From contig CBFDEC010000006.1 in assembly GCA_965603725.1 (NCBI GenBank), positions 5,997 to 69,996 on the forward strand: a stretch of 64,000 nt of DNA, given 5' to 3'. The translations under genes and the position numbers were made by a program. This document shows, in pieces, positions 6,428 through 20,306 of this stretch; position 1 is the first letter of the stretch; each line of letters starts with the position of its first letter. This DNA is from an uncultured bacterium (GTDB lineage Bacteria > Zixibacteria > MSB-5A5 > UBA10806 > 4484-95). The notes beneath the pieces are model-generated. The model was not told where the DNA came from. It did not search any database and saw only the letters and a program-made list of their open reading frames with translations.

Positions 6428-7306
6428 ATGAAAAAATCGTCGCGCCTGCTATATGCAATCACTCTGATTTTATGTAATCCCGGTATATCGGTAGCCCGTT
6501 TGGCCGATAAATGCGGCGTAACCGAAAGGACAATTTACCGGGATATTATCGATATCTCTGAAGCTAACATTCCCATTTACTTTGATAATGGCTACCGTAT
6601 CCTCGATACCGGGAAGGTGCCTCCGTTAAACTTCACCAGCGATGAGTTGATTTATCTGTATAACATTCTTCAAAGTAAGTCCCATAGCGAAGTGTTTGGC
6701 GGGGTTGGCAATAGGCTGGCGGATAAACTGAGACGTCACATTCCGGGAATCTTGAATGACAAAAATATCGGGTTTCATACTCATTCGACCGACACCACAG
6801 CCCTGGCAAAGATATTCGCCAGAATTGAAAAGACAATTAGTTCCGGCAAAATTATAAGTTTCAAATACACATCCTTAAACGGCAAGACATCCCGGCGAAA
6901 CGTTCATCCATACGGTCTTGTTTTCAGGGGTCATGGCTGGTACCTGGTCGGTTATTGTGAGGCAAGGGAAGAGGTCAGGATTTTCCGGCTTGTCAGGATA
7001 TCGAATTTACGGGCAATTCAAAAAAGGTTTGATAAACAGGCGGATTTTTCCATTGATGAGTTTATGGATGAAAGCTGGGCCGTTTTCAGGGGAGAGCATT
7101 ACAACTTTGAAATAAAATTTACCGGACCGGCGGCGGTTGCAGCATCTACAACCTGCCATCACAAAGATGAGAAAGTTGTAAAAAAAGGAAAAAACCACGT
7201 TATTTATAGCGTGAAATCCCGCGGCAAAGAGGAATTTATAAATGGGTGCTGTCATTCGGCAGGCATGCAGAATTGCTCGAACCGGTTCATCTTCGGCAGG
7301 AGGTAA
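6428..7306 (+). CDS. HTH + WYL-domain transcriptional regulator (YafY/PafBC-like). The C-terminus appears frameshifted; the full-length frame would end near 7345.
   Basis: N-terminal HTH_11-like segment (RLLYAITLILCNPGISVARLADKCGVTERTIYRDI). WYL domain (SFKYTSLNGKTSRRNVHPYGLVFRGHGWYLVGYCEAREEVRIFRLVRI). In the next frame the expected WCX tail appears from about 7242 (WVLSFGRHAELLEPVHLRQEVKKRLEASL...), after an A-run at 7238-7243. Confidence 0.7.
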   Translation: MKKSSRLLYAITLILCNPGISVARLADKCGVTERTIYRDIIDISEANIPIYFDNGYRILDTGKVPPLNFTSDELIYLYNILQSKSHSEVFGGVGNRLADKLRRHIPGILNDKNIGFHTHSTDTTALAKIFARIEKTISSGKIISFKYTSLNGKTSRRNVHPYGLVFRGHGWYLVGYCEAREEVRIFRLVRISNLRAIQKRFDKQADFSIDEFMDESWAVFRGEHYNFEIKFTGPAAVAASTTCHHKDEKVVKKGKNHVIYSVKSRGKEEFINGCCHSAGMQNCSNRFIFGRR

Positions 7307-8153: not shown

Positions 8154-8160
8154 AAAGGAT

Positions 8161-8232
8161 GCCCCCGTAGCTCAGTGGATAGAGCATCGGCCTCCGGAGC
8201 CGTGTGCGGCCGTTCGAGTCGGCCCGGGGGTA
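8161..8232 (+). tRNA. tRNA-Arg (anticodon CCG)
   Basis: Manual cloverleaf fold. Acceptor GCCCCCG/CGGGGGT with a G1:U72 wobble. D-arm GCTC-AGTGGATA-GAGC. Anticodon arm TCGGC-CTCCGGA-GCCGT with one U:U mismatch at 27:43. 4-nt variable loop. T-arm GGCCG-TTCGAGT-CGGCC. Discriminator A, no encoded CCA. Closely resembles E. coli tRNA-Arg(CCG). Confidence 0.8.
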
Positions 8233-8341
8233 TAATGATCATGACAAAACGCTGACGGCCGGTTTGATTATGCGGTGAAAATGGCAGGAGAATTATCAAT
8301 AAACATTATCCTTTATTTGACGATTTTTCTATTATATACAA

Positions 8342-8409: not shown

Positions 8410-10125
8410 ATGCTTTGGACAAAAACATTTATCCCTACCTTACGTGATGACCCGGCTGATGCTGAAATCGCTTCGCATAAACTTCTGGTACGGGCGGGCT
8501 ACATCAGGAAGCTGACTGCTGGAATATATAACTACTTACCCTTAATGCAGCGAACAATTCATAAAGTCATGAATATAGTCCGTGAGGAAATGGACGCTGC
8601 TGGCGCCATAGAGATCACCATGCCGGTATTGCATCCGGCCGAATTGTGGCAGAAGACCGGTCGCTGGGATACAGTCGGGAAAGAGCAGATGCGTATGAAA
8701 GATCGTCACATGCGCGATATGGTCCTGGGCGGCACTCATGAGGAGGTGGTTACCTGGATCGCCCGCGGCGAAATCAGAAGCTACCGTCAAACGCCGATTA
8801 ATATGTACCAGATTCAGGTAAAGTTCCGTGATGAGATCCGTCCCCGGTTCGGCCTGATAAGGGGACGTGAATTCATTATGAAAGATGCGTACTCATTCGA
8901 TGTAGATGAGGCAGGTCTGAAAGTCGCCTATGAAAAAATGGCGGAAGCGTATTTCAAGGTGTTCAAGCGATGCGGTTGCGAGGTTAAGATAGTCGAATCG
9001 GATGTCGGCGCCATGGGTGGTTTTGGCGCGCACGAGTTCATGGTTCCTGTTGAAACCGGCGGTGGAGAGGAAATAATTCTATCGTGTGATAGATGCAATT
9101 ATGCCGCTAATATAGAAAAAGCCATTTCGTTTCACGATGAAGAACTGGTGACCGAAAAAGAACATAAAAGTAAAGAGATGGTTTTTACCCCCAACATGAA
9201 GACTATTGAGGAAGTCACCGAATACCTTAAATTGCCCCCAGAGAGACTGCTAAAGACTTTGATATATTTAGCTGATGGCAAACCCATAGCGGCGTTAATT
9301 CGCGGTGATCGAAGTATTAATGAAATCAAGCTCTCAAATCATCTTCGCAGCCTCGAACTTGAAATGGCCGACCCTGAAACTATTATGAAACTGACCGGCG
9401 CCCTGGTGGGTTTTTCCGGACCTGTTGGTTTAAGAGGCGTGCACATTATCGCTGATCATGAAATCAGGCAGATGGTTAATTTCGTAGTTGGCGCCAATAA
9501 AGATGACACTCATATTATCAATGTTAACCTTGAAGATTTCCACATTGATGAATATGCTGAGCTCCGCAATGCCGAAGCCGGTGAAAGATGTCCTCGCTGT
9601 GGAACAGGACGTCTCCAGGCGTTTTCCGGCATAGAGGTCGGCAACCTGTTCATGCTGGGTACAAAGTATTCCGAAGCTCTGGATGCGACCTTTGTCGATG
9701 AAAACGGCGACGAGAAACCGTTCGTGATGGGGTCATATGGAATAGGTATAACCCGTACCGCCCAGGCGGCAGTCGAGGCGTACCATGATGACAAAGGGAT
9801 TATCTGGCCAAAAACTATCGCGCCCTACGATTTCCATATCATCCCCTTGAGCATGGACAGCGAAAAGCACAGAGAGATTGCGTTTTCACTTTGCGATGAA
9901 CTTGAGAAGGCTGGTTATTCGGTACTCATCGATGACCGTGACGAGCGTCCCGGCGTCAAGTTCAACGACGCCGACCTGATCGGCATGCCGATACGTATTG
10001 CAATTGGGGACAGGGGGCTTAAAGAAGGCATTATAGAGATAGTCCGACGCAAAGACCTGTCAGTTGAGAAGGTCTCGATTGATATGGCCGCAGAAAAAGC
10101 TATTGAGATTTGGGAGGCGTTGTAA
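8410..10125 (+). CDS. proS: Prolyl-tRNA synthetase (bacterial type, with editing domain)
   Basis: The N-terminus MLWTKTFIPTLRDDPADAEIASHKLLVRAGYIRK is the canonical ProRS start. Class II motifs are present. Length 571 aa. Confidence 0.95.
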   Translation: MLWTKTFIPTLRDDPADAEIASHKLLVRAGYIRKLTAGIYNYLPLMQRTIHKVMNIVREEMDAAGAIEITMPVLHPAELWQKTGRWDTVGKEQMRMKDRHMRDMVLGGTHEEVVTWIARGEIRSYRQTPINMYQIQVKFRDEIRPRFGLIRGREFIMKDAYSFDVDEAGLKVAYEKMAEAYFKVFKRCGCEVKIVESDVGAMGGFGAHEFMVPVETGGGEEIILSCDRCNYAANIEKAISFHDEELVTEKEHKSKEMVFTPNMKTIEEVTEYLKLPPERLLKTLIYLADGKPIAALIRGDRSINEIKLSNHLRSLELEMADPETIMKLTGALVGFSGPVGLRGVHIIADHEIRQMVNFVVGANKDDTHIINVNLEDFHIDEYAELRNAEAGERCPRCGTGRLQAFSGIEVGNLFMLGTKYSEALDATFVDENGDEKPFVMGSYGIGITRTAQAAVEAYHDDKGIIWPKTIAPYDFHIIPLSMDSEKHREIAFSLCDELEKAGYSVLIDDRDERPGVKFNDADLIGMPIRIAIGDRGLKEGIIEIVRRKDLSVEKVSIDMAAEKAIEIWEAL

Positions 10126-10203
10126 AAACAAAATATTTGATATGAGTAACAGTCATAAGTATAATATATTTTTGTTAGAATAAATATTTTAAATGGATTA
10201 AAG

Positions 10204-11202
10204 ATGAAGTATTTCTTTTGCAGGCTAAGTTGGATGGAATTATATCAAGGTTGTTCTTATGATAAGCCAATATATGGCGGGAAATTCCCAGAGGAAGAAG
10301 GATATTGTTTTGAATCATATAATTTTAAACCTTATAGAAATCATCTTTATGGTTTTGTAAAAAGTCGAAATTATAATTCAAATATATCAATTGAAAATTT
10401 AGGAGCACAAAAAAAGGATAATTCCATTAAAGATATTACTGTTGTTTATTTTGCCACAAAACCAAAAACTGGCGGGCAATATATTATTGGATGGTACAAA
10501 AACGCAACCGTATTCAGGCACTTTCAGAAAAATCTACCAAAGAAAACTGGTAGAATATTTCCTAAATGGAACTCTAATGAAGTAATAGGTTATCATATCA
10601 AGGCATCCATAAAAGATGCTATTTTACTTCCTCCTGAGGAGAGGGTTTTTAAAATCTTACATAAATCTGTTGGAGGACCAGGGATTTCCCAGTTGTGGTA
10701 TTGTAATAAAGGTAATAAAGAACAATTAAAGTTTTTAAAGGATGTTGAATATTACATCAAGTATAGAAAGTTGCCGAAATCTATAATATCAAAAAGAAAA
10801 TCTTCAAAAAAAGTACTCCAAGATTATAAAAAGATAAAGGAAACTGAATTAAAAGCAATGAATATTATTAAAGAGTATTATTATTCGTTGGGATATGTTA
10901 TCGATGATGTAAGTAAAGATAATCTTGGCTATGACTTGGAAGCTTATAATGATAACAATTTATTGTATCTTGAAGTAAAAGGATTATCAAGCAATAACCT
11001 TTTTACTGAATTAACTCCAAACCAATTTCAAACAATGAATGATAATAAGGATAATTATAGGATTTGTATTGCAGCAGATATTTCAACAAAAAAACCAATT
11101 ATTTATATATTCAGATATTCTTATGAGAAAGGTTGCTGGATTGACCAGAATAGTAATAAATTGATTATAAAAAGAAAAACTGGTGCTAAGATATGGATTT
11201 AG
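10204..11202 (+). CDS. Hypothetical protein in an AT-rich island; the C-terminal region is PD-(D/E)xK/DUF3883-like (putative nuclease); N-terminal domain unknown
   Basis: The gene and its upstream spacer look about 30% GC against roughly 45-50% in flanking DNA. The C-terminal segment GYDLEAYNDNNLLYLEVKGLSSNNLFTELTPNQFQTMNDNKDNYRICIA fits the D...ExK core and the DUF3883 (NO VEIN C-terminal) pattern G.D...EVK...f.LT.nQ. It is lysine-rich. Confidence 0.5.
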   Translation: MKYFFCRLSWMELYQGCSYDKPIYGGKFPEEEGYCFESYNFKPYRNHLYGFVKSRNYNSNISIENLGAQKKDNSIKDITVVYFATKPKTGGQYIIGWYKNATVFRHFQKNLPKKTGRIFPKWNSNEVIGYHIKASIKDAILLPPEERVFKILHKSVGGPGISQLWYCNKGNKEQLKFLKDVEYYIKYRKLPKSIISKRKSSKKVLQDYKKIKETELKAMNIIKEYYYSLGYVIDDVSKDNLGYDLEAYNDNNLLYLEVKGLSSNNLFTELTPNQFQTMNDNKDNYRICIAADISTKKPIIYIFRYSYEKGCWIDQNSNKLIIKRKTGAKIWI

Positions 11203-11215
11203 AAAATATTTTAAT

Positions 11216-11308
11216 GCGTCAGGATGGAAACCCGCCTAAGGCGGGTGACATATTAACGCTGCGGCGGAGAAACCTTCATGGTGTCGTTCCTTCCATCCTG
11301 AGGGATAT
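11216..11308. repeat. MITE-like structured repeat, copy A (TIR GTCAGGATGGAA ... TTCCATCCTGAG)
   Basis: Shares GCGTCAGGATGGAAA...GCGGCGGAGAAA(C/T)C..TGTCGTTCCTTCCATCCTGAGGGATAT with copy B. The two differ in an internal segment, and this copy has an internal hairpin CCCGCC-TAA-GGCGGG. Confidence 0.7.
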
Positions 11309-11353
11309 GAAATGGGCGTAGGGGTTTGATTAATCAAACCTCTGCAGTTTAGT

Positions 11354-11437
11354 GCGTCAGGATGGAAATGAAATGACATCCTGACGTTGCGGCGGAGAAA
11401 TCCTCAGGATGTCGTTCCTTCCATCCTGAGGGATATA
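11354..11437. repeat. MITE-like structured repeat, copy B
   Basis: Same termini as copy A. It has two internal hairpins with the same arms (GTCAGGATG/CATCCTGAC and CCTCAGGATG/CATCCTGAGG). Confidence 0.7.
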
Positions 11438-11471
11438 AAGACTTTGCAAGTAATAACCGGAAAGGTAAAAG

Positions 11472-12326
11472 ATGAAACTCGGCAATCTTGAATTGATATC
11501 GATACTGGAAAACAGTTTCAAGCTCGATGGCGGGGCAATGTTCGGAATCATCCCCAAAATTATCTGGAGCAGGATGGTTACTGCTGATGAAAACAACCTT
11601 ATTCCTTTAGATATCAATCCGCTTATTATCAAAACCGGCGATGAAATTTTGCTAGTCGATGCCGGTTTCGGCGACATCTTAAACGAAAAGCAAATGAAGA
11701 TATTCGGCATTAGCGGTCCTACTCGCTGGGATCATGAGCTTAGCCAAAATAATATCAAACCAGAGGATATCACCGGTGTAATATTTACTCATCTTCATTC
11801 CGATCACGCTATGGGAGCTTTGAAAAAAGGCGATGACGGCGAACCCGAGCTGCGTTTTCCCAATGCTAAATACTATGTCCATAAGCGTGAATGGCAGGAT
11901 TCTATAAATCCCAATGAGCGCACGGCCGCTACATATTTCAAGAATCATCTGCGGCTGTTTGAACAGTCCGGCAAACTTGAGCTTCTCAATGGCGATACGG
12001 AGCTTTTTCCCAACATTCATATCAAGCATCTTGGTGGTCATACTCCGGGCATGCAGGGAGTCATTATAGATGCAGACGGTCAGCGCGTAATATATCCCGG
12101 TGATTTAATCCCGCTTCAATACAATATCAAAATACCTTATGTCCCGGCTGTTGACCTTGACCCTATCGCCTCGATGAACCAGAAACGCTGGCTTGTTAAA
12201 AAAATGCTGAAAGAGGACTGGATTTTAGCGTTTGACCATGACATCGAGTTTAAATTTGCCAGGTTCAAGATAGATGATAAGGGGAAAGTCATCCCGGTTA
12301 AGATTGATCAAGAATATGTAATGTAA
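11472..12326 (+). CDS. MBL-fold metallo-hydrolase
   Basis: HxHxDH motif (THLHSDHAMGAL) and later His/Asp ligands (HLGGHTPG, DHD). Length 284 aa. Confidence 0.8.
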   Translation: MKLGNLELISILENSFKLDGGAMFGIIPKIIWSRMVTADENNLIPLDINPLIIKTGDEILLVDAGFGDILNEKQMKIFGISGPTRWDHELSQNNIKPEDITGVIFTHLHSDHAMGALKKGDDGEPELRFPNAKYYVHKREWQDSINPNERTAATYFKNHLRLFEQSGKLELLNGDTELFPNIHIKHLGGHTPGMQGVIIDADGQRVIYPGDLIPLQYNIKIPYVPAVDLDPIASMNQKRWLVKKMLKEDWILAFDHDIEFKFARFKIDDKGKVIPVKIDQEYVM

Positions 12327-14002: not shown

Positions 14003-14458
14003 ATGGCATTGTTGAGTATGACTAAGGATAGATATTTAAATTTATTGATTGAATACGGATATATTTATGATAATGATTTCTATAATTGGGTGTTAATAGC
14101 AAATTTAGTATTTGTGATATTTTTTGGATTGATGGGTTACTGGGTATTGGAAAATATCATAGGGTTTATCGCAGGGGTTGGCTTAAGTTTTATATTATGG
14201 CGAAGTGTAAATAAAAAAATATGGTGGTTACGTAAAGAATACTATGTGCCATTTTTATATTCCTACAGATTTACCCAATTTGATAATATTGATATTGATT
14301 TACTGGGGAAGTTTATGCGTGGCCTTTATATGAAAGTAGAGAAAGTGAGCGCCCAAGAAGTTAAGAGCATAATTGAGCAAGGAAATAATGATTCTTCTAT
14401 TCCTTATAATTATGTAAAGAATATCGCAAATAAATATGAAACAAAATATGCTTTATAA
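14003..14458 (+). CDS. Hypothetical small membrane protein (151 aa), AT-rich, bounded by REPs
   Basis: Two predicted TM helices and no recognisable domain. It lies between REP 13958-13985 and REP 14488-14509, which are in opposite orientations. Confidence 0.4.
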   Translation: MALLSMTKDRYLNLLIEYGYIYDNDFYNWVLIANLVFVIFFGLMGYWVLENIIGFIAGVGLSFILWRSVNKKIWWLRKEYYVPFLYSYRFTQFDNIDIDLLGKFMRGLYMKVEKVSAQEVKSIIEQGNNDSSIPYNYVKNIANKYETKYAL

Positions 14459-14487
14459 ATTCTCTGTTTTGTGTCCCAACCTTAAGC

Positions 14488-14509
14488 GGCGCCAGAAGTT
14501 ACTTCTGGC
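14488..14509. repeat. REP palindrome GGCGCCAGAAGT-T-ACTTCTGGC (orientation TTA)
   Basis: Same core as the other REPs; the outer arms differ (GCGCC versus TGCAGT). Confidence 0.75.
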
Positions 14510-14534
14510 TGAACAAGCAGAAATAATTTACAGT

Positions 14535-14559
14535 GGTGTCAGAAGTTACTTCTGACACC
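14535..14559. repeat. REP palindrome GGTGTCAGAAGT-T-ACTTCTGACACC
   Basis: Perfect palindrome, 24 nt upstream of the RAYT start codon. Confidence 0.75.
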
Positions 14560-14582
14560 TGCTAATAAAACATATATTGTAA

Positions 14583-15095
14583 ATGGGAAGACGATACCGA
14601 CAAAATGTTAAAGGTGGATGTTATTTCGTTACGACATCTGTAGCGGGTTTTATTAAAGTTTTCGATGATCCACATTGCTCCAAAATTGTCATAGATTCAT
14701 TGCATTACTGCAAGCAAAAATTTAATTTTACGTTGGATGCTTACGTAATCATGCCTGATCATCTTCATTTAATCCTGACTATAGAAGAAAATTCTAAAAT
14801 TTCAAATATTATGAGAGATTTTAAAAAATATACTTCGGTGGCAGTCAAACGATATTTGTTAGAAGGAAATAATGATAAAATATATTTTCAGTTACTTAAA
14901 CAAGTACCCAGCAGACCTGAAAGATCGTTTAAACTATGGCTGGATAGATTTGATGATGTTGCCATATATTCAGAAAAGGTATACTTGACAAAGTTACAGT
15001 ACATTATTAACAACCCAATAAAAGCTGGTCTTGTTGCGAAACCTGAGGATTGGCAATATCTATATTATGAATCGATGAATTGCAGTCAGAAGTAA
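14583..15095 (+). CDS. REP-associated tyrosine transposase (RAYT / TnpA_REP, IS200-like Y1 HuH family)
   Basis: HuH motif VIMPDHLHLILT. C-terminal block KLQYIINNPIKAGLVAKPEDWQY typical of Y1 transposases and RAYTs. 170 aa. Flanked on both sides by REP palindromes, one of which overlaps its stop codon. Confidence 0.8.
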   Translation: MGRRYRQNVKGGCYFVTTSVAGFIKVFDDPHCSKIVIDSLHYCKQKFNFTLDAYVIMPDHLHLILTIEENSKISNIMRDFKKYTSVAVKRYLLEGNNDKIYFQLLKQVPSRPERSFKLWLDRFDDVAIYSEKVYLTKLQYIINNPIKAGLVAKPEDWQYLYYESMNCSQK

Positions 15096-18307: not shown

Positions 18308-20041
18308 TTACTTTAGCAATGTTACATTTATTGAAGATACATATTCTTTGCTACGAACGCTTATGAAATAAACTCCGCTTGGGACAGGTTGACCAAGGTC
18401 ATCCGTACCATTCCAGATAAAGTCATAAGAATTCATGTTGTTGTCACAGATAATATCAGATTTAACCAGGCGACCGAGTATGTTATATATTTTAAGACTA
18501 TACTGATTTGTTGACTCCCCGGTAAAGGATATTTTTACAGAGCTGTTAAAAGGGTTGGGATAAGCTTCGATTGATAGATAATTTTCAGGAAGTTGAGTCT
18601 TTGATTCAATTATTGAAACTGTGGTTGTATCTTCATAAATTGAAATCTGTTGTCCAGGAATGATGCCAGATGTGTCTACTATAAAGAGCGAATTGAAAGT
18701 TATAATAGCTCTTAGTTCTTCAAAGTTTCCTGTACCAAAATGTAAAATAGGTTCATCAAAGGAAAACATTGATGAATGGCTGACCATCTGACGCTTGCCG
18801 ATATAAATAGTATCGGGAGGGTCATTGAGTATGCCATACAAGTCAACAATTGCACCTAAAGCAAGCGTGTTTGGATATAACCCGATAAGTTTTATTCTTA
18901 GAAATGAGTTATTTTGATTTTGATTAATATAAATTTGATTTTGCTGATCATCGCAGTTAGCCATTACAATATCAAGTTGACCATCATTATTCAAATCACC
19001 CGTTGCGCAGCCAAAACCATTTAAGTAGTCAACAACGCCGGCTTCATAACTATAATCTTCAAAAATACCCAGTCCATTATTTAAAAGAATCATGTTATAA
19101 TCAGTTGCCCTGTTTATGAAAAGATCTATATCGCCATCATTGTCATAATCAGCAAAATTAGCTCCCCGAGTAAAGTCTCCATAATCAGTATTTGATTGTG
19201 TACTAATATTAGTAAAATAACCTGTGCCATCGTTTTCCCACATTGAATTCTCAATACTTGAGGTCATATATAGATCAAAATCACCATCATTGTCTATATC
19301 TCCAAAGCAAGCGCCTCCGCCTGATGGGAAACCACCTTCATTTGTATTGAAAGAGATATCAATGAAGGTCGTATCTCCGTTGTTTCGAAATAGTCTTCCT
19401 CCATCAGCGTGCCAATTACCTGCAACGAAAAGGTCATCATCGTTATCACCATCCATATCAAAGAATAACGGACAATGCAGATTTGCAATTGTTTCAAATC
19501 CCGAGCCTTCGGTTATATCAATAAAAGTCTGTCCTACACGGACCATAAGATTTCCTCCGCATAGAACAGCTAATTCAGATTCAGGTGTAAATTGAAAAAA
19601 GATTGAACCCATTTCATCTACCTCGGCAAGGTTGTAGCTTTCAGCTTCATCTGAAAATGGCGGGTGACCCTGATTTATGTAAAGATGTCCATGATTCCCA
19701 TAGTATGGTTCACCTGTTATGTAAATATCAGGTAAATAATCCTTATCTACATCGGTAAGAGCAATGGAATGATGACCATTTGCATACTGAGATAATTCAT
19801 ATTCATATCCCATATCGATATATAATGAATCATACCATATATAAAGACGGTCAGCTCCATTATGGTTAGCAATGATAATTTCATTTACCATGTCATTATT
19901 TAAGTCAATTATACCAACTCCACAACTAAATTGTGCCTCTGTTACATTTAACTCATTAGCCATTTGCAGAAATGTAACCTGGCAGAAAGCTGAACACACT
20001 ATCGTTAGAAGTGCTATTATTATAATAATTATAGCTCTCAT
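18308..20041 (-). CDS. FG-GAP/VCBS-repeat (integrin-alpha-like) secreted protein with T9SS C-terminal sorting domain
   Basis: Signal peptide. Repeated Ca-binding-like D.DNDGD.DL motifs (DIDNDGDFDLY, DYDNDGDIDLF, DLNNDGQLDIV). C-terminus YPNPFNSSVKISF...INVTLLK. Confidence 0.8.
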   Translation of the reverse strand: MRAIIIIIIALLTIVCSAFCQVTFLQMANELNVTEAQFSCGVGIIDLNNDMVNEIIIANHNGADRLYIWYDSLYIDMGYEYELSQYANGHHSIALTDVDKDYLPDIYITGEPYYGNHGHLYINQGHPPFSDEAESYNLAEVDEMGSIFFQFTPESELAVLCGGNLMVRVGQTFIDITEGSGFETIANLHCPLFFDMDGDNDDDLFVAGNWHADGGRLFRNNGDTTFIDISFNTNEGGFPSGGGACFGDIDNDGDFDLYMTSSIENSMWENDGTGYFTNISTQSNTDYGDFTRGANFADYDNDGDIDLFINRATDYNMILLNNGLGIFEDYSYEAGVVDYLNGFGCATGDLNNDGQLDIVMANCDDQQNQIYINQNQNNSFLRIKLIGLYPNTLALGAIVDLYGILNDPPDTIYIGKRQMVSHSSMFSFDEPILHFGTGNFEELRAIITFNSLFIVDTSGIIPGQQISIYEDTTTVSIIESKTQLPENYLSIEAYPNPFNSSVKISFTGESTNQYSLKIYNILGRLVKSDIICDNNMNSYDFIWNGTDDLGQPVPSGVYFISVRSKEYVSSINVTLLK

Positions 20042-20306
20042 GATACACTTCCTAAATTATGGTGAAATATTAATCAATCTATGGTAATATAGATAATTGA
20101 AACACGAAAATGTCAAGTAAAATCGATATTTTTCTCAAACTATCGAAAAATTCTGAAATATTATGTATTTAACTCAAAATCGCTTCCGCCGCTTTTTTTA
20201 ACTCCGGCATCACTTTATTCTTTGTTTTTTCTTATTTTTAATTATATTATATAGAGTATTAATGATCTGGAGTATTGGTCTATAATTTGAGAAGGCGATC
20301 GATAAA

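Follow-up and report, generated by a model that had tools for sequence, protein, structure and literature searches.

The gene downstream of proS

The subject of this analysis is a gene located directly after proS in a 64-kb window of DNA (64,000 nucleotides of contig CBFDEC010000006.1) from an uncultured Zixibacteria bacterium; by the window we mean this whole stretch. The gene is a complete open reading frame (ORF) with an ATG start, 332 amino acids long (10204..11202, + strand), and is predicted to encode a single-chain modification-dependent (type IV) restriction endonuclease. No second frame of at least 50 amino acids occurs on either strand in this span. Between the proS stop codon and the start of the ORF there is an AT-rich spacer of 78 nt (10126..10203, + strand), which has a GC content of 0.167.

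An earlier reading of the sequence (the first-pass annotation) had described an AT-rich single-gene island after proS with Lys/Asn/Ile-heavy coding, and both parts of this description were borne out by windowed GC and codon scans, which set the region apart from its background. The GC content of the segment 10126-11215 is 0.273, whereas the mean of the window is 0.427. When all 1,090-bp windows of the 64 kb were scored, the minimum was the one starting at 10121, i.e. the region of the nuclease gene. The ORF has a GC content of 0.285 and a third-position GC content (GC3) of 0.231, compared with GC3 values of 0.516 for proS, 0.474 for the metallo-beta-lactamase (MBL) fold hydrolase gene and 0.484 for the carboxyltransferase gene. 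The encoded protein is enriched in Lys (13.6%), Asn (7.8%), Ile (9.6%) and Tyr (8.7%); in ProS the shares of Lys, Asn and Tyr are 6.3%, 2.8% and 3.0%, respectively.

A promoter scan, which scored consensus match only, found in the spacer a near-consensus sigma-70-type promoter (TTGATA-17-TATAAT, 10137-10165) with 11/12 matches, suggesting that the gene may carry its own promoter. Promoter-like sites in the region numbered 8 against 6.7 expected from shuffling, i.e. there was no excess. The Joint Genome Institute gene call for an identical protein (P0001) begins at M11 and yields 322 amino acids, which affects the stretch 10204-10236. Two observations favour the upstream ATG at 10204: residues 5-16 are conserved in homologs, and residues 2-8 form a beta-strand modelled with confidence.

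The C-terminal nuclease domain

The AlphaFold2 (AF2) model of the protein, built from 69 homologs, has a predicted local distance difference test (pLDDT) score of 90.5 and consists of two domains, both modelled with high confidence. They are connected by a linker comprising residues 193 to 214 (10780..10845, + strand), which was delimited by pLDDT per block and by secondary structure. Residues 199-206 are disordered (pLDDT <50) and run into a long helix (203-228), which bears E215.

The C-terminus had been proposed to be a DUF3883-like PD-(D/E)xK domain, and the searches agreed. The Pfam family NOV_C (formerly DUF3883, PF13020) matched residues 215-301 (10846..11106, + strand) with E=3.7e-13 and 49.8 bits against a cut-off of 22.1, covering profile positions 2-90 of 91; the structural extent of the nuclease domain is about residues 203-313. 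The motifs quoted in the first-pass annotation (GYD244LEAYNDNNLLYLE257VK259G, LTPNQF and YRICI) are all present. Alignment identified four catalytic candidates, all on the + strand: E215 (10846-10848), D244 (10933-10935), E257 (10972-10974) and K259 (10978-10980). These residues are kept in 90%, 96%, 97% and 93%, respectively, of 153 full-length relatives, and all four are present in the window protein, which thus has an intact catalytic signature: Glu in helix alpha-1, then Asp, then (D/E)-x-K on consecutive strands.

When the C-terminal domain of the AF2 model was compared with the PDB by Foldseek, Hjc resolvases matched with a probability of 1.00 and a template modelling score, relative to the target, of 0.60. 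Other matches were SPARDA nuclease subunits, tRNA-splicing endonucleases, RecU, EcoRV and the homing endonuclease I-Ssp6803I. The E-values were modest (0.016 and above), but the fold is restriction-endonuclease-like, and the resemblance to PD-(D/E)xK folds that had been expected of the C-terminus does exist. DUF3883 was placed in the PD-(D/E)XK superfamily by Steczkiewicz et al. (PMC3424549). The role of NOV_C as a DNA cutter is supported by YenY4I, a modification-dependent endonuclease composed of PUA-superfamily, DUF3427 and DUF3883 domains, in which DUF3883 is the catalytic domain. YenY4I cuts DNA containing 5-methylcytosine (5mC) or 5-hydroxymethylcytosine (5hmC), and T4gt is partly restricted by it (Lutz et al. 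2019, PMC6765204).

The N-terminal domain

The N-terminal domain (residues 1-192; 10204..10779, + strand) is confidently modelled as a beta-barrel sharing the three-dimensional fold of the PUA-like superfamily (EVE/YTH/ASCH-type), and is a putative sensor of modified bases. Its signature is G96-W-Y-K-N-A-T-V-F-R. Residues conserved throughout the family are W10, M11, Y14, G16, E37, N40, F41, G50, G96, W97, Y98, A101, R147, G160, W165 and Y166. The near-invariant aromatic and polar residues among them (Y14, E37, N40, F41, W97, Y98, R147, W165 and Y166) are the candidates for a base-binding pocket.

The structural matches of the domain include the EVE proteins PH1033 and THYN1 (the latter bound to 5mC DNA) and the YTH proteins Mmi1, YTHDC1, YTHDC2, YTHDF1, MRB1 and CPSF30, three of which were solved with RNA or with RNA containing N6-methyladenosine (m6A). 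The restriction enzyme VcaM4I, deposited as an HNH endonuclease and described as EVE-HNH (PMC7897488), was also matched, as were the N-terminal domains of McrB from T. gammatolerans (bound to m5C DNA) and S. marinus, the 5hmC-specific enzyme PD-T4-3, ASCH proteins and DrmA. A Foldseek search of viral structures (BFVD) gave no significant match.

Sequence searches did not connect the domain with any of these families. Neither the window protein nor 38 N-terminal domain sequences had a Pfam hit in this domain at E<=1 (EVE PF01878, YTH, ASCH, SRA), and nothing was obtained from NCBIfam, PHROGs, or phmmer and profile searches of the PDB. Alignment by hhalign of the N-domain profile with the EVE domain of a distant relative (P0115) was non-significant, and so were the alignments with canonical, defence-type and pooled EVE profiles made from the supplement of Bell 2020 (E ~0.4 for the canonical and defence-type profiles). 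Over all comparisons with single EVE sequences and EVE profiles, E ranged from ~0.1 to 0.5, and only a topologically equivalent 'VVW...IVGW' hairpin was aligned. As judged by these profile comparisons it does not belong to the EVE domains in sequence. The sensor constitutes a separate, larger (~190 amino acids) and widespread family with no detectable link to EVE, YTH, ASCH or SRA sequences; Pfam, NCBIfam, PADLOC and the PDB contain no entry for it, and no description of it was found in the literature searched.

Family and domain partners

A word-indexed search returned 81 relatives, most of them about 325 amino acids long, with the same architecture and 29-43% identity; the closest homolog is 43% identical. 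In databases such proteins are labelled only 'DUF3883 domain-containing' or 'hypothetical'. An exhaustive search with the profile of the N-terminal domain reached much further, finding 2,736 clusters (50% identity) at E<=0.001, 1,169 of which were retained at E<=1e-30.

Pfam scans of the top 144 representatives from the profile search revealed that the N-terminal domain is combined with different partners. NOV_C was by far the most frequent (88 members), followed by HNH (9) and HNH_2 (6). AAA_5 and TPR_2 were found in two members each, and canonical EVE, HSDR_N, DpnI_C and nSTAND3 in one member each. HEPN or other RNase partners were not found in this set. P0168 is a McrB-type GTPase (AAA_5 and McrB_lid, with GPPGTGKT, DEINRGN and MNTAD, the last representing the NxxD motif), in which the domain occupies the N-terminal position of target recognition. 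In P0115 the domain is followed by a canonical EVE domain and then by a McrB-type ATPase; P0099 has an HSDR_N PD-(D/E)xK domain at the N-terminus and the GWYKNATVFR-type domain at the C-terminus. This spectrum of partners agrees with that described for sensors of type IV restriction (PMC7641849; PMC12191111). Together with the PUA-like fold, the swapping of nuclease partners supports the earlier suggestion that the N-terminal ~220 residues form a sensing or binding module.

A broader proposal is also possible, and we advance it as a tentative one: the 'GWYKNATVFR' domain (~190 amino acids) may be an undescribed, widespread family of modification sensors, interchangeable among NOV_C, HNH, HSDR_N and McrB effectors, whose specificity might differ from that of the readers of 5mC, 5hmC and N6-methyladenine (6mA), e.g. 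by being directed at a hypermodified phage base. In that case the family would offer new type IV enzymes and reagents with which modified DNA could be detected.

A subfamily of 420-483 amino acids (P0058, P0060, P0086, P0097, P0105, P0112, P0125, P0140, P0178 and P0210) has an extra N-terminal domain of ~100-170 amino acids preceding the core formed by sensor and NOV_C. This extra domain has no Pfam match; it might be a second sensor.

Probable horizontal acquisition and genomic contexts of the homologs

The conservation of the locus was assessed in 160 proS loci (80 from genomes and 80 from metagenomes) with flanks of 6 kb. The best full-length ProS matches were 59-63% identical and came from three Zixiibacteriota metagenome-assembled genomes (MAGs), one Ignavibacteriales MAG and others; two partial matches reached 71% and 78%. 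A homolog of the nuclease gene or of the MBL gene occurred within 6 kb of proS in none of the 160 loci. In the nearest relative found (L115, ProS 78% identical over residues 251-571) the DNA after proS is unrelated. These two observations indicate that the nuclease gene is not part of a syntenic core. Because the full-length ProS relatives are only 59-63% identical and the adjacency of proS and the MBL gene is not conserved in the 160 loci, this sample gave no empty-site comparison.

The homologs are scattered over Bacteroidota, Alpha- and Gammaproteobacteria and plasmids; 18 plasmid records had a match, 10 of them predicted to be conjugative. Twelve independent homolog neighbourhoods were inspected. 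One homolog belongs to a conjugative element that also encodes a relaxase, a coupling protein, RadC and SSB, and an HNH variant is found on a plasmid-like contig with ArdA, MqsRA, ParA, integrase and Fic. On a Rhodovastum plasmid the gene is located between insertion sequence (IS) elements and adjoins Hachiman, and on an Agrobacterium plasmid it is near an integrase and VapBC. In a defence island it directly follows a GmrSD_N-family gene, close to AAA_15/21 and NERD-kinase genes. In Hymenobacter, copies on a plasmid and on a chromosome stand directly after a UvrD helicase gene, near ArdC, integrase and transposase. There the homolog begins 17 nt after the helicase gene (L002 4293-6990, a contig of chromosome size; L168 4287-6984, plasmid), a spacing that suggests a helicase-nuclease operon in that lineage; the window has none. 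Solitary inserts among housekeeping genes were also seen, in contexts including L003, L006 and L174.

Horizontal acquisition of the gene, proposed in the first-pass annotation, is supported by its extreme composition, by its absence at the 160 proS loci, where the interval between proS and the MBL gene had been suggested for comparison, and by the mobile contexts of its homologs. That it is an ordinary core gene of the lineage with an incidentally low GC content would fit its sharing the orientation of proS and of the downstream genes. This explanation has next to no chance of being correct: the gene makes up the lowest-GC segment in 64 kb, with a GC3 of 0.23, is missing beside proS in the 160 loci and in the nearest relative found, and has homologs dispersed over Bacteroidota, two classes of Proteobacteria and plasmids. 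It is effectively refuted by composition and distribution and was rejected. Integration targeted to the nearby tRNA gene found no support either, as there is no integrase nearby and there are no flanking direct repeats or target-site duplications.

Matches to the N-terminal domain alone (~51-57% of the query) were observed in 'hypothetical proteins' of two Ruminococcus phages (PV036433.1 26058-26507 and PV036441.1 15478-15927). Such matches also occur on Agrobacterium, Rhizobium and Shinella plasmids; in one Agrobacterium locus (L171 6001-7056, 351 amino acids) the gene reaches well past the matched domain. In the phages, these genes could serve as decoys or in anti-defence, or they could encode nucleases of the phage.

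Proposed function

We consider it probable, with appreciable room for doubt, that the product of the gene is a type IV restriction endonuclease, stand-alone and made of a single polypeptide, and that a bacterium of the Fibrobacteres-Chlorobi-Bacteroidetes (FCB) group acquired it horizontally. With its reader-like domain combined with a DNA-cutting domain, the protein most likely belongs to an already known general type of restriction enzyme directed against phages. Two features of that type were found here: a sensor fused or coupled to a nuclease (in the window protein to NOV_C, in relatives also to HNH, HNH_2, HSDR_N and McrB-type GTPases), and the lack of a cognate DNA methyltransferase, as none adjoins the gene among the annotated neighbours in the window and only one was seen in the 12 contexts elsewhere. 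The first-pass annotation had spoken of a nuclease-like gene whose function was inference only; it still is, but the likely class can now be named.

The proposed mechanism is modelled on VcaM4I. In it, a modified base would be flipped by the PUA-like domain into a conserved pocket formed by the candidate residues. The sensor would be connected by the helical and flexible linker to the NOV_C PD-(D/E)xK domain with its residues E215, D244, E257 and K259, which would cleave the DNA close by in a reaction that depends on metal but not on NTP. The nuclease probably acts as a dimer or oligomer assembled through the nuclease domains. Phage or plasmid DNA bearing the modification would be destroyed. 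We propose that host DNA is free of the recognised modification, so that a methyltransferase partner would not be needed.

A number of observations weigh against this interpretation, and they bear at the same time on the alternatives. The fold resemblance of the N-terminal domain is moderate only, and the pocket role of its conserved residues is that of a candidate. Both facts would suit a nuclease that acts independently of modification, whose N-terminal domain recognises DNA structure, damage or unmodified sequence and which serves repair or recombination, or spreads as a selfish homing-type enzyme. The best matches of the C-terminal domain, Holliday-junction resolvases and a homing endonuclease (I-Ssp6803I), point in the same direction, and solitary insertion between housekeeping genes, here as in L003, L006 and L174, is the manner of selfish nucleases. 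On the other hand, an unprotected stand-alone nuclease, whether non-specific or sequence-specific, would be toxic and no methyltransferase or immunity gene adjoins it; the patchy distribution over mobile elements and defence islands is unlike that of a repair gene; and the location of the domain at the N-terminal position of McrB, and in tandem with a canonical EVE domain, speaks for the reading of modified bases. We regard this alternative as unlikely.

YTH domains and some EVE/ASCH domains bind RNA. An RNA-directed toxin or abortive-infection effector is conceivable, in which the PUA-like domain would read a modified RNA base, on the model of YTH reading m6A or of EVE/ASCH domains binding tRNA and rRNA modifications, and the PD-(D/E)xK-fold domain would cleave RNA or both RNA and DNA. 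The fusion partners of the N-terminal domain are, however, DNA enzymes (HNH, HSDR_N, McrB-type GTPase and the DpnI_C DNA-binding domain), the top 144 representatives offer no RNase partner to set against them, and the DUF3883 domain of YenY4I cuts DNA. An RNA target is on this evidence improbable, and DNA would be the substrate of the predicted restriction enzyme.

Other points against the restriction enzyme concern the window copy itself. The helix following the ExK strand contains N273-Q274-F275 (codons 274-275 at 11023-11028, + strand) in place of the family motif N-E-Y. Q274 sits where 92% of the 153 relatives have Glu and is unique to the window protein, and F275 sits where 78% have Tyr. 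In addition, Y82 replaces a Trp and C35 a Gly, each found in 90% of the family. The window copy could, given these changes, be attenuated or altered. They would also be expected of a decaying or orphaned copy, which once worked, possibly with a UvrD-type helicase, and is now an impaired remnant drifting under AT pressure; there is no partner gene close by, and the best homolog is as distant as 43% identity. Against decay, the ORF runs over its full length free of frameshifts and premature stops, the four catalytic residues and all the most conserved residues of the N-terminal domain are kept, the AF2 confidence is high in both domains, a near-consensus promoter lies upstream, and most members of the family are solitary genes as well. 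Moreover, some PD-(D/E)xK families have a functional Gln in the helix that follows the ExK strand, e.g. in the QxxxY motif of RecB/Cas4-type nucleases. We think there is little likelihood that the gene is a remnant.

The remaining reservations about a stand-alone type IV enzyme relate to the family. No characterised member was found in the literature searched. Some members may work with partners: beside the UvrD helicase in Hymenobacter, one locus (L173 1808-5749) has an apparently N-terminally short homolog (P0074) after an SNF2 helicase gene and a gene for a 1,313-amino-acid MmeI/Eco57I-like methyltransferase, the latter being the sole methyltransferase neighbour in the 12 contexts. The whole protein was not recognised by NCBIfam, and in PADLOC, a check recommended in the first-pass annotation, it matched no known defence system. 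Its C-terminal ~100 amino acids aligned to the extreme C-terminal tails of the TmtA (Tiamat) and HmaA (Hma) models with E-values from 4e-8 to 1e-2; these models are 1,063-1,782 positions long and were not matched in full length, and the tail matches are accounted for by the shared NOV_C domain.

Comparison with known modification-dependent systems

YenY4I, characterised by Lutz et al. 2019 (PMC6765204), was the one PUA-PD-(D/E)XK case then known to them. The window protein resembles it in having an N-terminal PUA-superfamily sensor and a C-terminal DUF3883/NOV_C domain, in the lack of a helicase or ATPase, and in being encoded by a stand-alone gene on mobile DNA. The two differ in that YenY4I (595-601 amino acids) carries an extra, SauUSI-like DUF3427 domain between sensor and nuclease, which is missing from the 332-residue window protein. 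Furthermore, the PUA domain of YenY4I clusters with EVE domains of the TspA15I/VcaM4I type, whereas the window sensor has no detectable EVE sequence similarity.

For VcaM4I base flipping is established: its EVE domain turns 5mC or 5hmC out into a hydrophobic pocket that lies between Y130 and W82, N4 is read by E15, and the enzyme dimerises through its nuclease domains (PMC7897488). In this EVE-HNH type IV family, which includes TspA15I (PDB 6yex; PMC7897488), the nuclease is HNH, while that of the window protein is PD-(D/E)xK. The window sensor is ~45 amino acids longer, contains extra elements and has no sequence similarity to the VcaM4I domain. The 5mC/5hmC specificity of VcaM4I is proven; the target of the window protein is putative.

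Type IV systems of the EVE-PD(D/E)XK, EVE-HNH and EVE-McrB types were predicted by Bell, Wolf and Koonin 2020 (PMC7641849), and the window protein falls into this predicted class, in which a PUA-like reader is joined to a PD-(D/E)xK nuclease or to McrB. Their data set already covers the combination of a reader with DUF3883, as it includes the EVE-like domain of a Microbacterium 'DUF3883 domain-containing protein' (TDL45116.1; PMC7641849). The N-terminal domain studied here is not detectably related to it (hhalign E=0.096, with only the IVGW hairpin aligned).

McrBC was compared through the YTH-like N-terminal domain of Thermococcus gammatolerans McrB (PDB 6p0g). The window protein has no AAA_5 domain according to Pfam and no GTPase, and there is no McrC-like gene among its neighbours in the window; McrB features occur only in the distant relatives P0168 and P0115. 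The window protein would cleave by means of its fused nuclease, with no requirement for NTP. It is similar in this respect to the MspJI family of type IV enzymes, which have an SRA-like N-terminal domain and a PD-(D/E)xK C-terminal domain: both are single-chain and NTP-independent, with an N-terminal base-flipping reader and a C-terminal PD-(D/E)xK nuclease, as far as the predicted mechanism goes.

The enzyme class is already known, and what differs here is the sensor family. The conceptual advance is modest, since the modular design of PUA-like reader and nuclease is already well established. If the interpretation is correct, the gene exemplifies a large family of modification sensors that lacks annotation. 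Including this family would enlarge the catalogue of type IV restriction enzymes and improve defence annotation, as PADLOC and NCBIfam miss it. Its members could then include enzymes whose modification specificities are new and of use in epigenomic mapping. The locus would also mark the recent horizontal gain of a gene acting against phages, in a lineage of the FCB group that has been poorly sampled.

Neighbouring genes and repeat elements

The annotated neighbours of the nuclease gene are a WYL regulator, a tRNA-Arg gene, proS, the MBL hydrolase gene, a carboxyltransferase gene and an IS200-like transposase gene. The location near a tRNA and aminoacyl-tRNA synthetase locus had been noted before and is correct: tRNA-Arg(CCG) occupies 8160-8233 and proS, in the same orientation as the nuclease gene, 8410-10125. 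The regulator (HTH_11 and WYL domains, 6428-7306, normal GC content) lies upstream of both. WYL regulators often govern defence or DNA-damage genes; no link between this one and the nuclease gene was found. On the other side, the hydrolase gene (Lactamase_B fold) spans 11472-12326.

The 3' end of the AT-rich gene is bounded by two tandem palindromic repeat elements (11203-11445, + strand; about 11203-11315 and 11340-11445). The two ~100-nt repeats have a common core of 66 nt, 86% identical, and identical ends of 16 nt (TGCGTCAGGATGGAAA) and 26 nt (GTCGTTCCTTCCATCCTGAGGGATAT). Stable folding is predicted for both (z -5.2 and -5.7). The elements have no other copies in the 64-kb window, were absent from 166 loci scanned, and had no match in Rfam; a sub-threshold Rfam hit to CRISPR-DR10 (E=0.42) falls inside the MBL gene and was dismissed. 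The first-pass annotation had called them elements like miniature inverted-repeat transposable elements (MITEs). Two tandem palindromic elements do exist, but their MITE status is unproven, as no further copies were found in the window or in the 166 loci. They may be repeat elements resembling MITEs or repetitive extragenic palindromes (REPs), a terminator or something else, and any connection with the nuclease gene is putative.

A second AT-rich patch (14003-15095; GC 0.29-0.32, GC3 ~0.28) was noticed ~3 kb downstream of the nuclease gene. It holds an ORF of 151 amino acids with no Pfam hit and a 170-amino-acid IS200-like Y1 transposase (PF01797, E=9e-10); its AT-richness and the transposase make it look like another recent insertion. 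Local dips in GC content were also observed at 19751-20250 (0.29) and 2251-2750 (0.34), and the segment 18308-20041 codes for a type IX secretion sorting domain.

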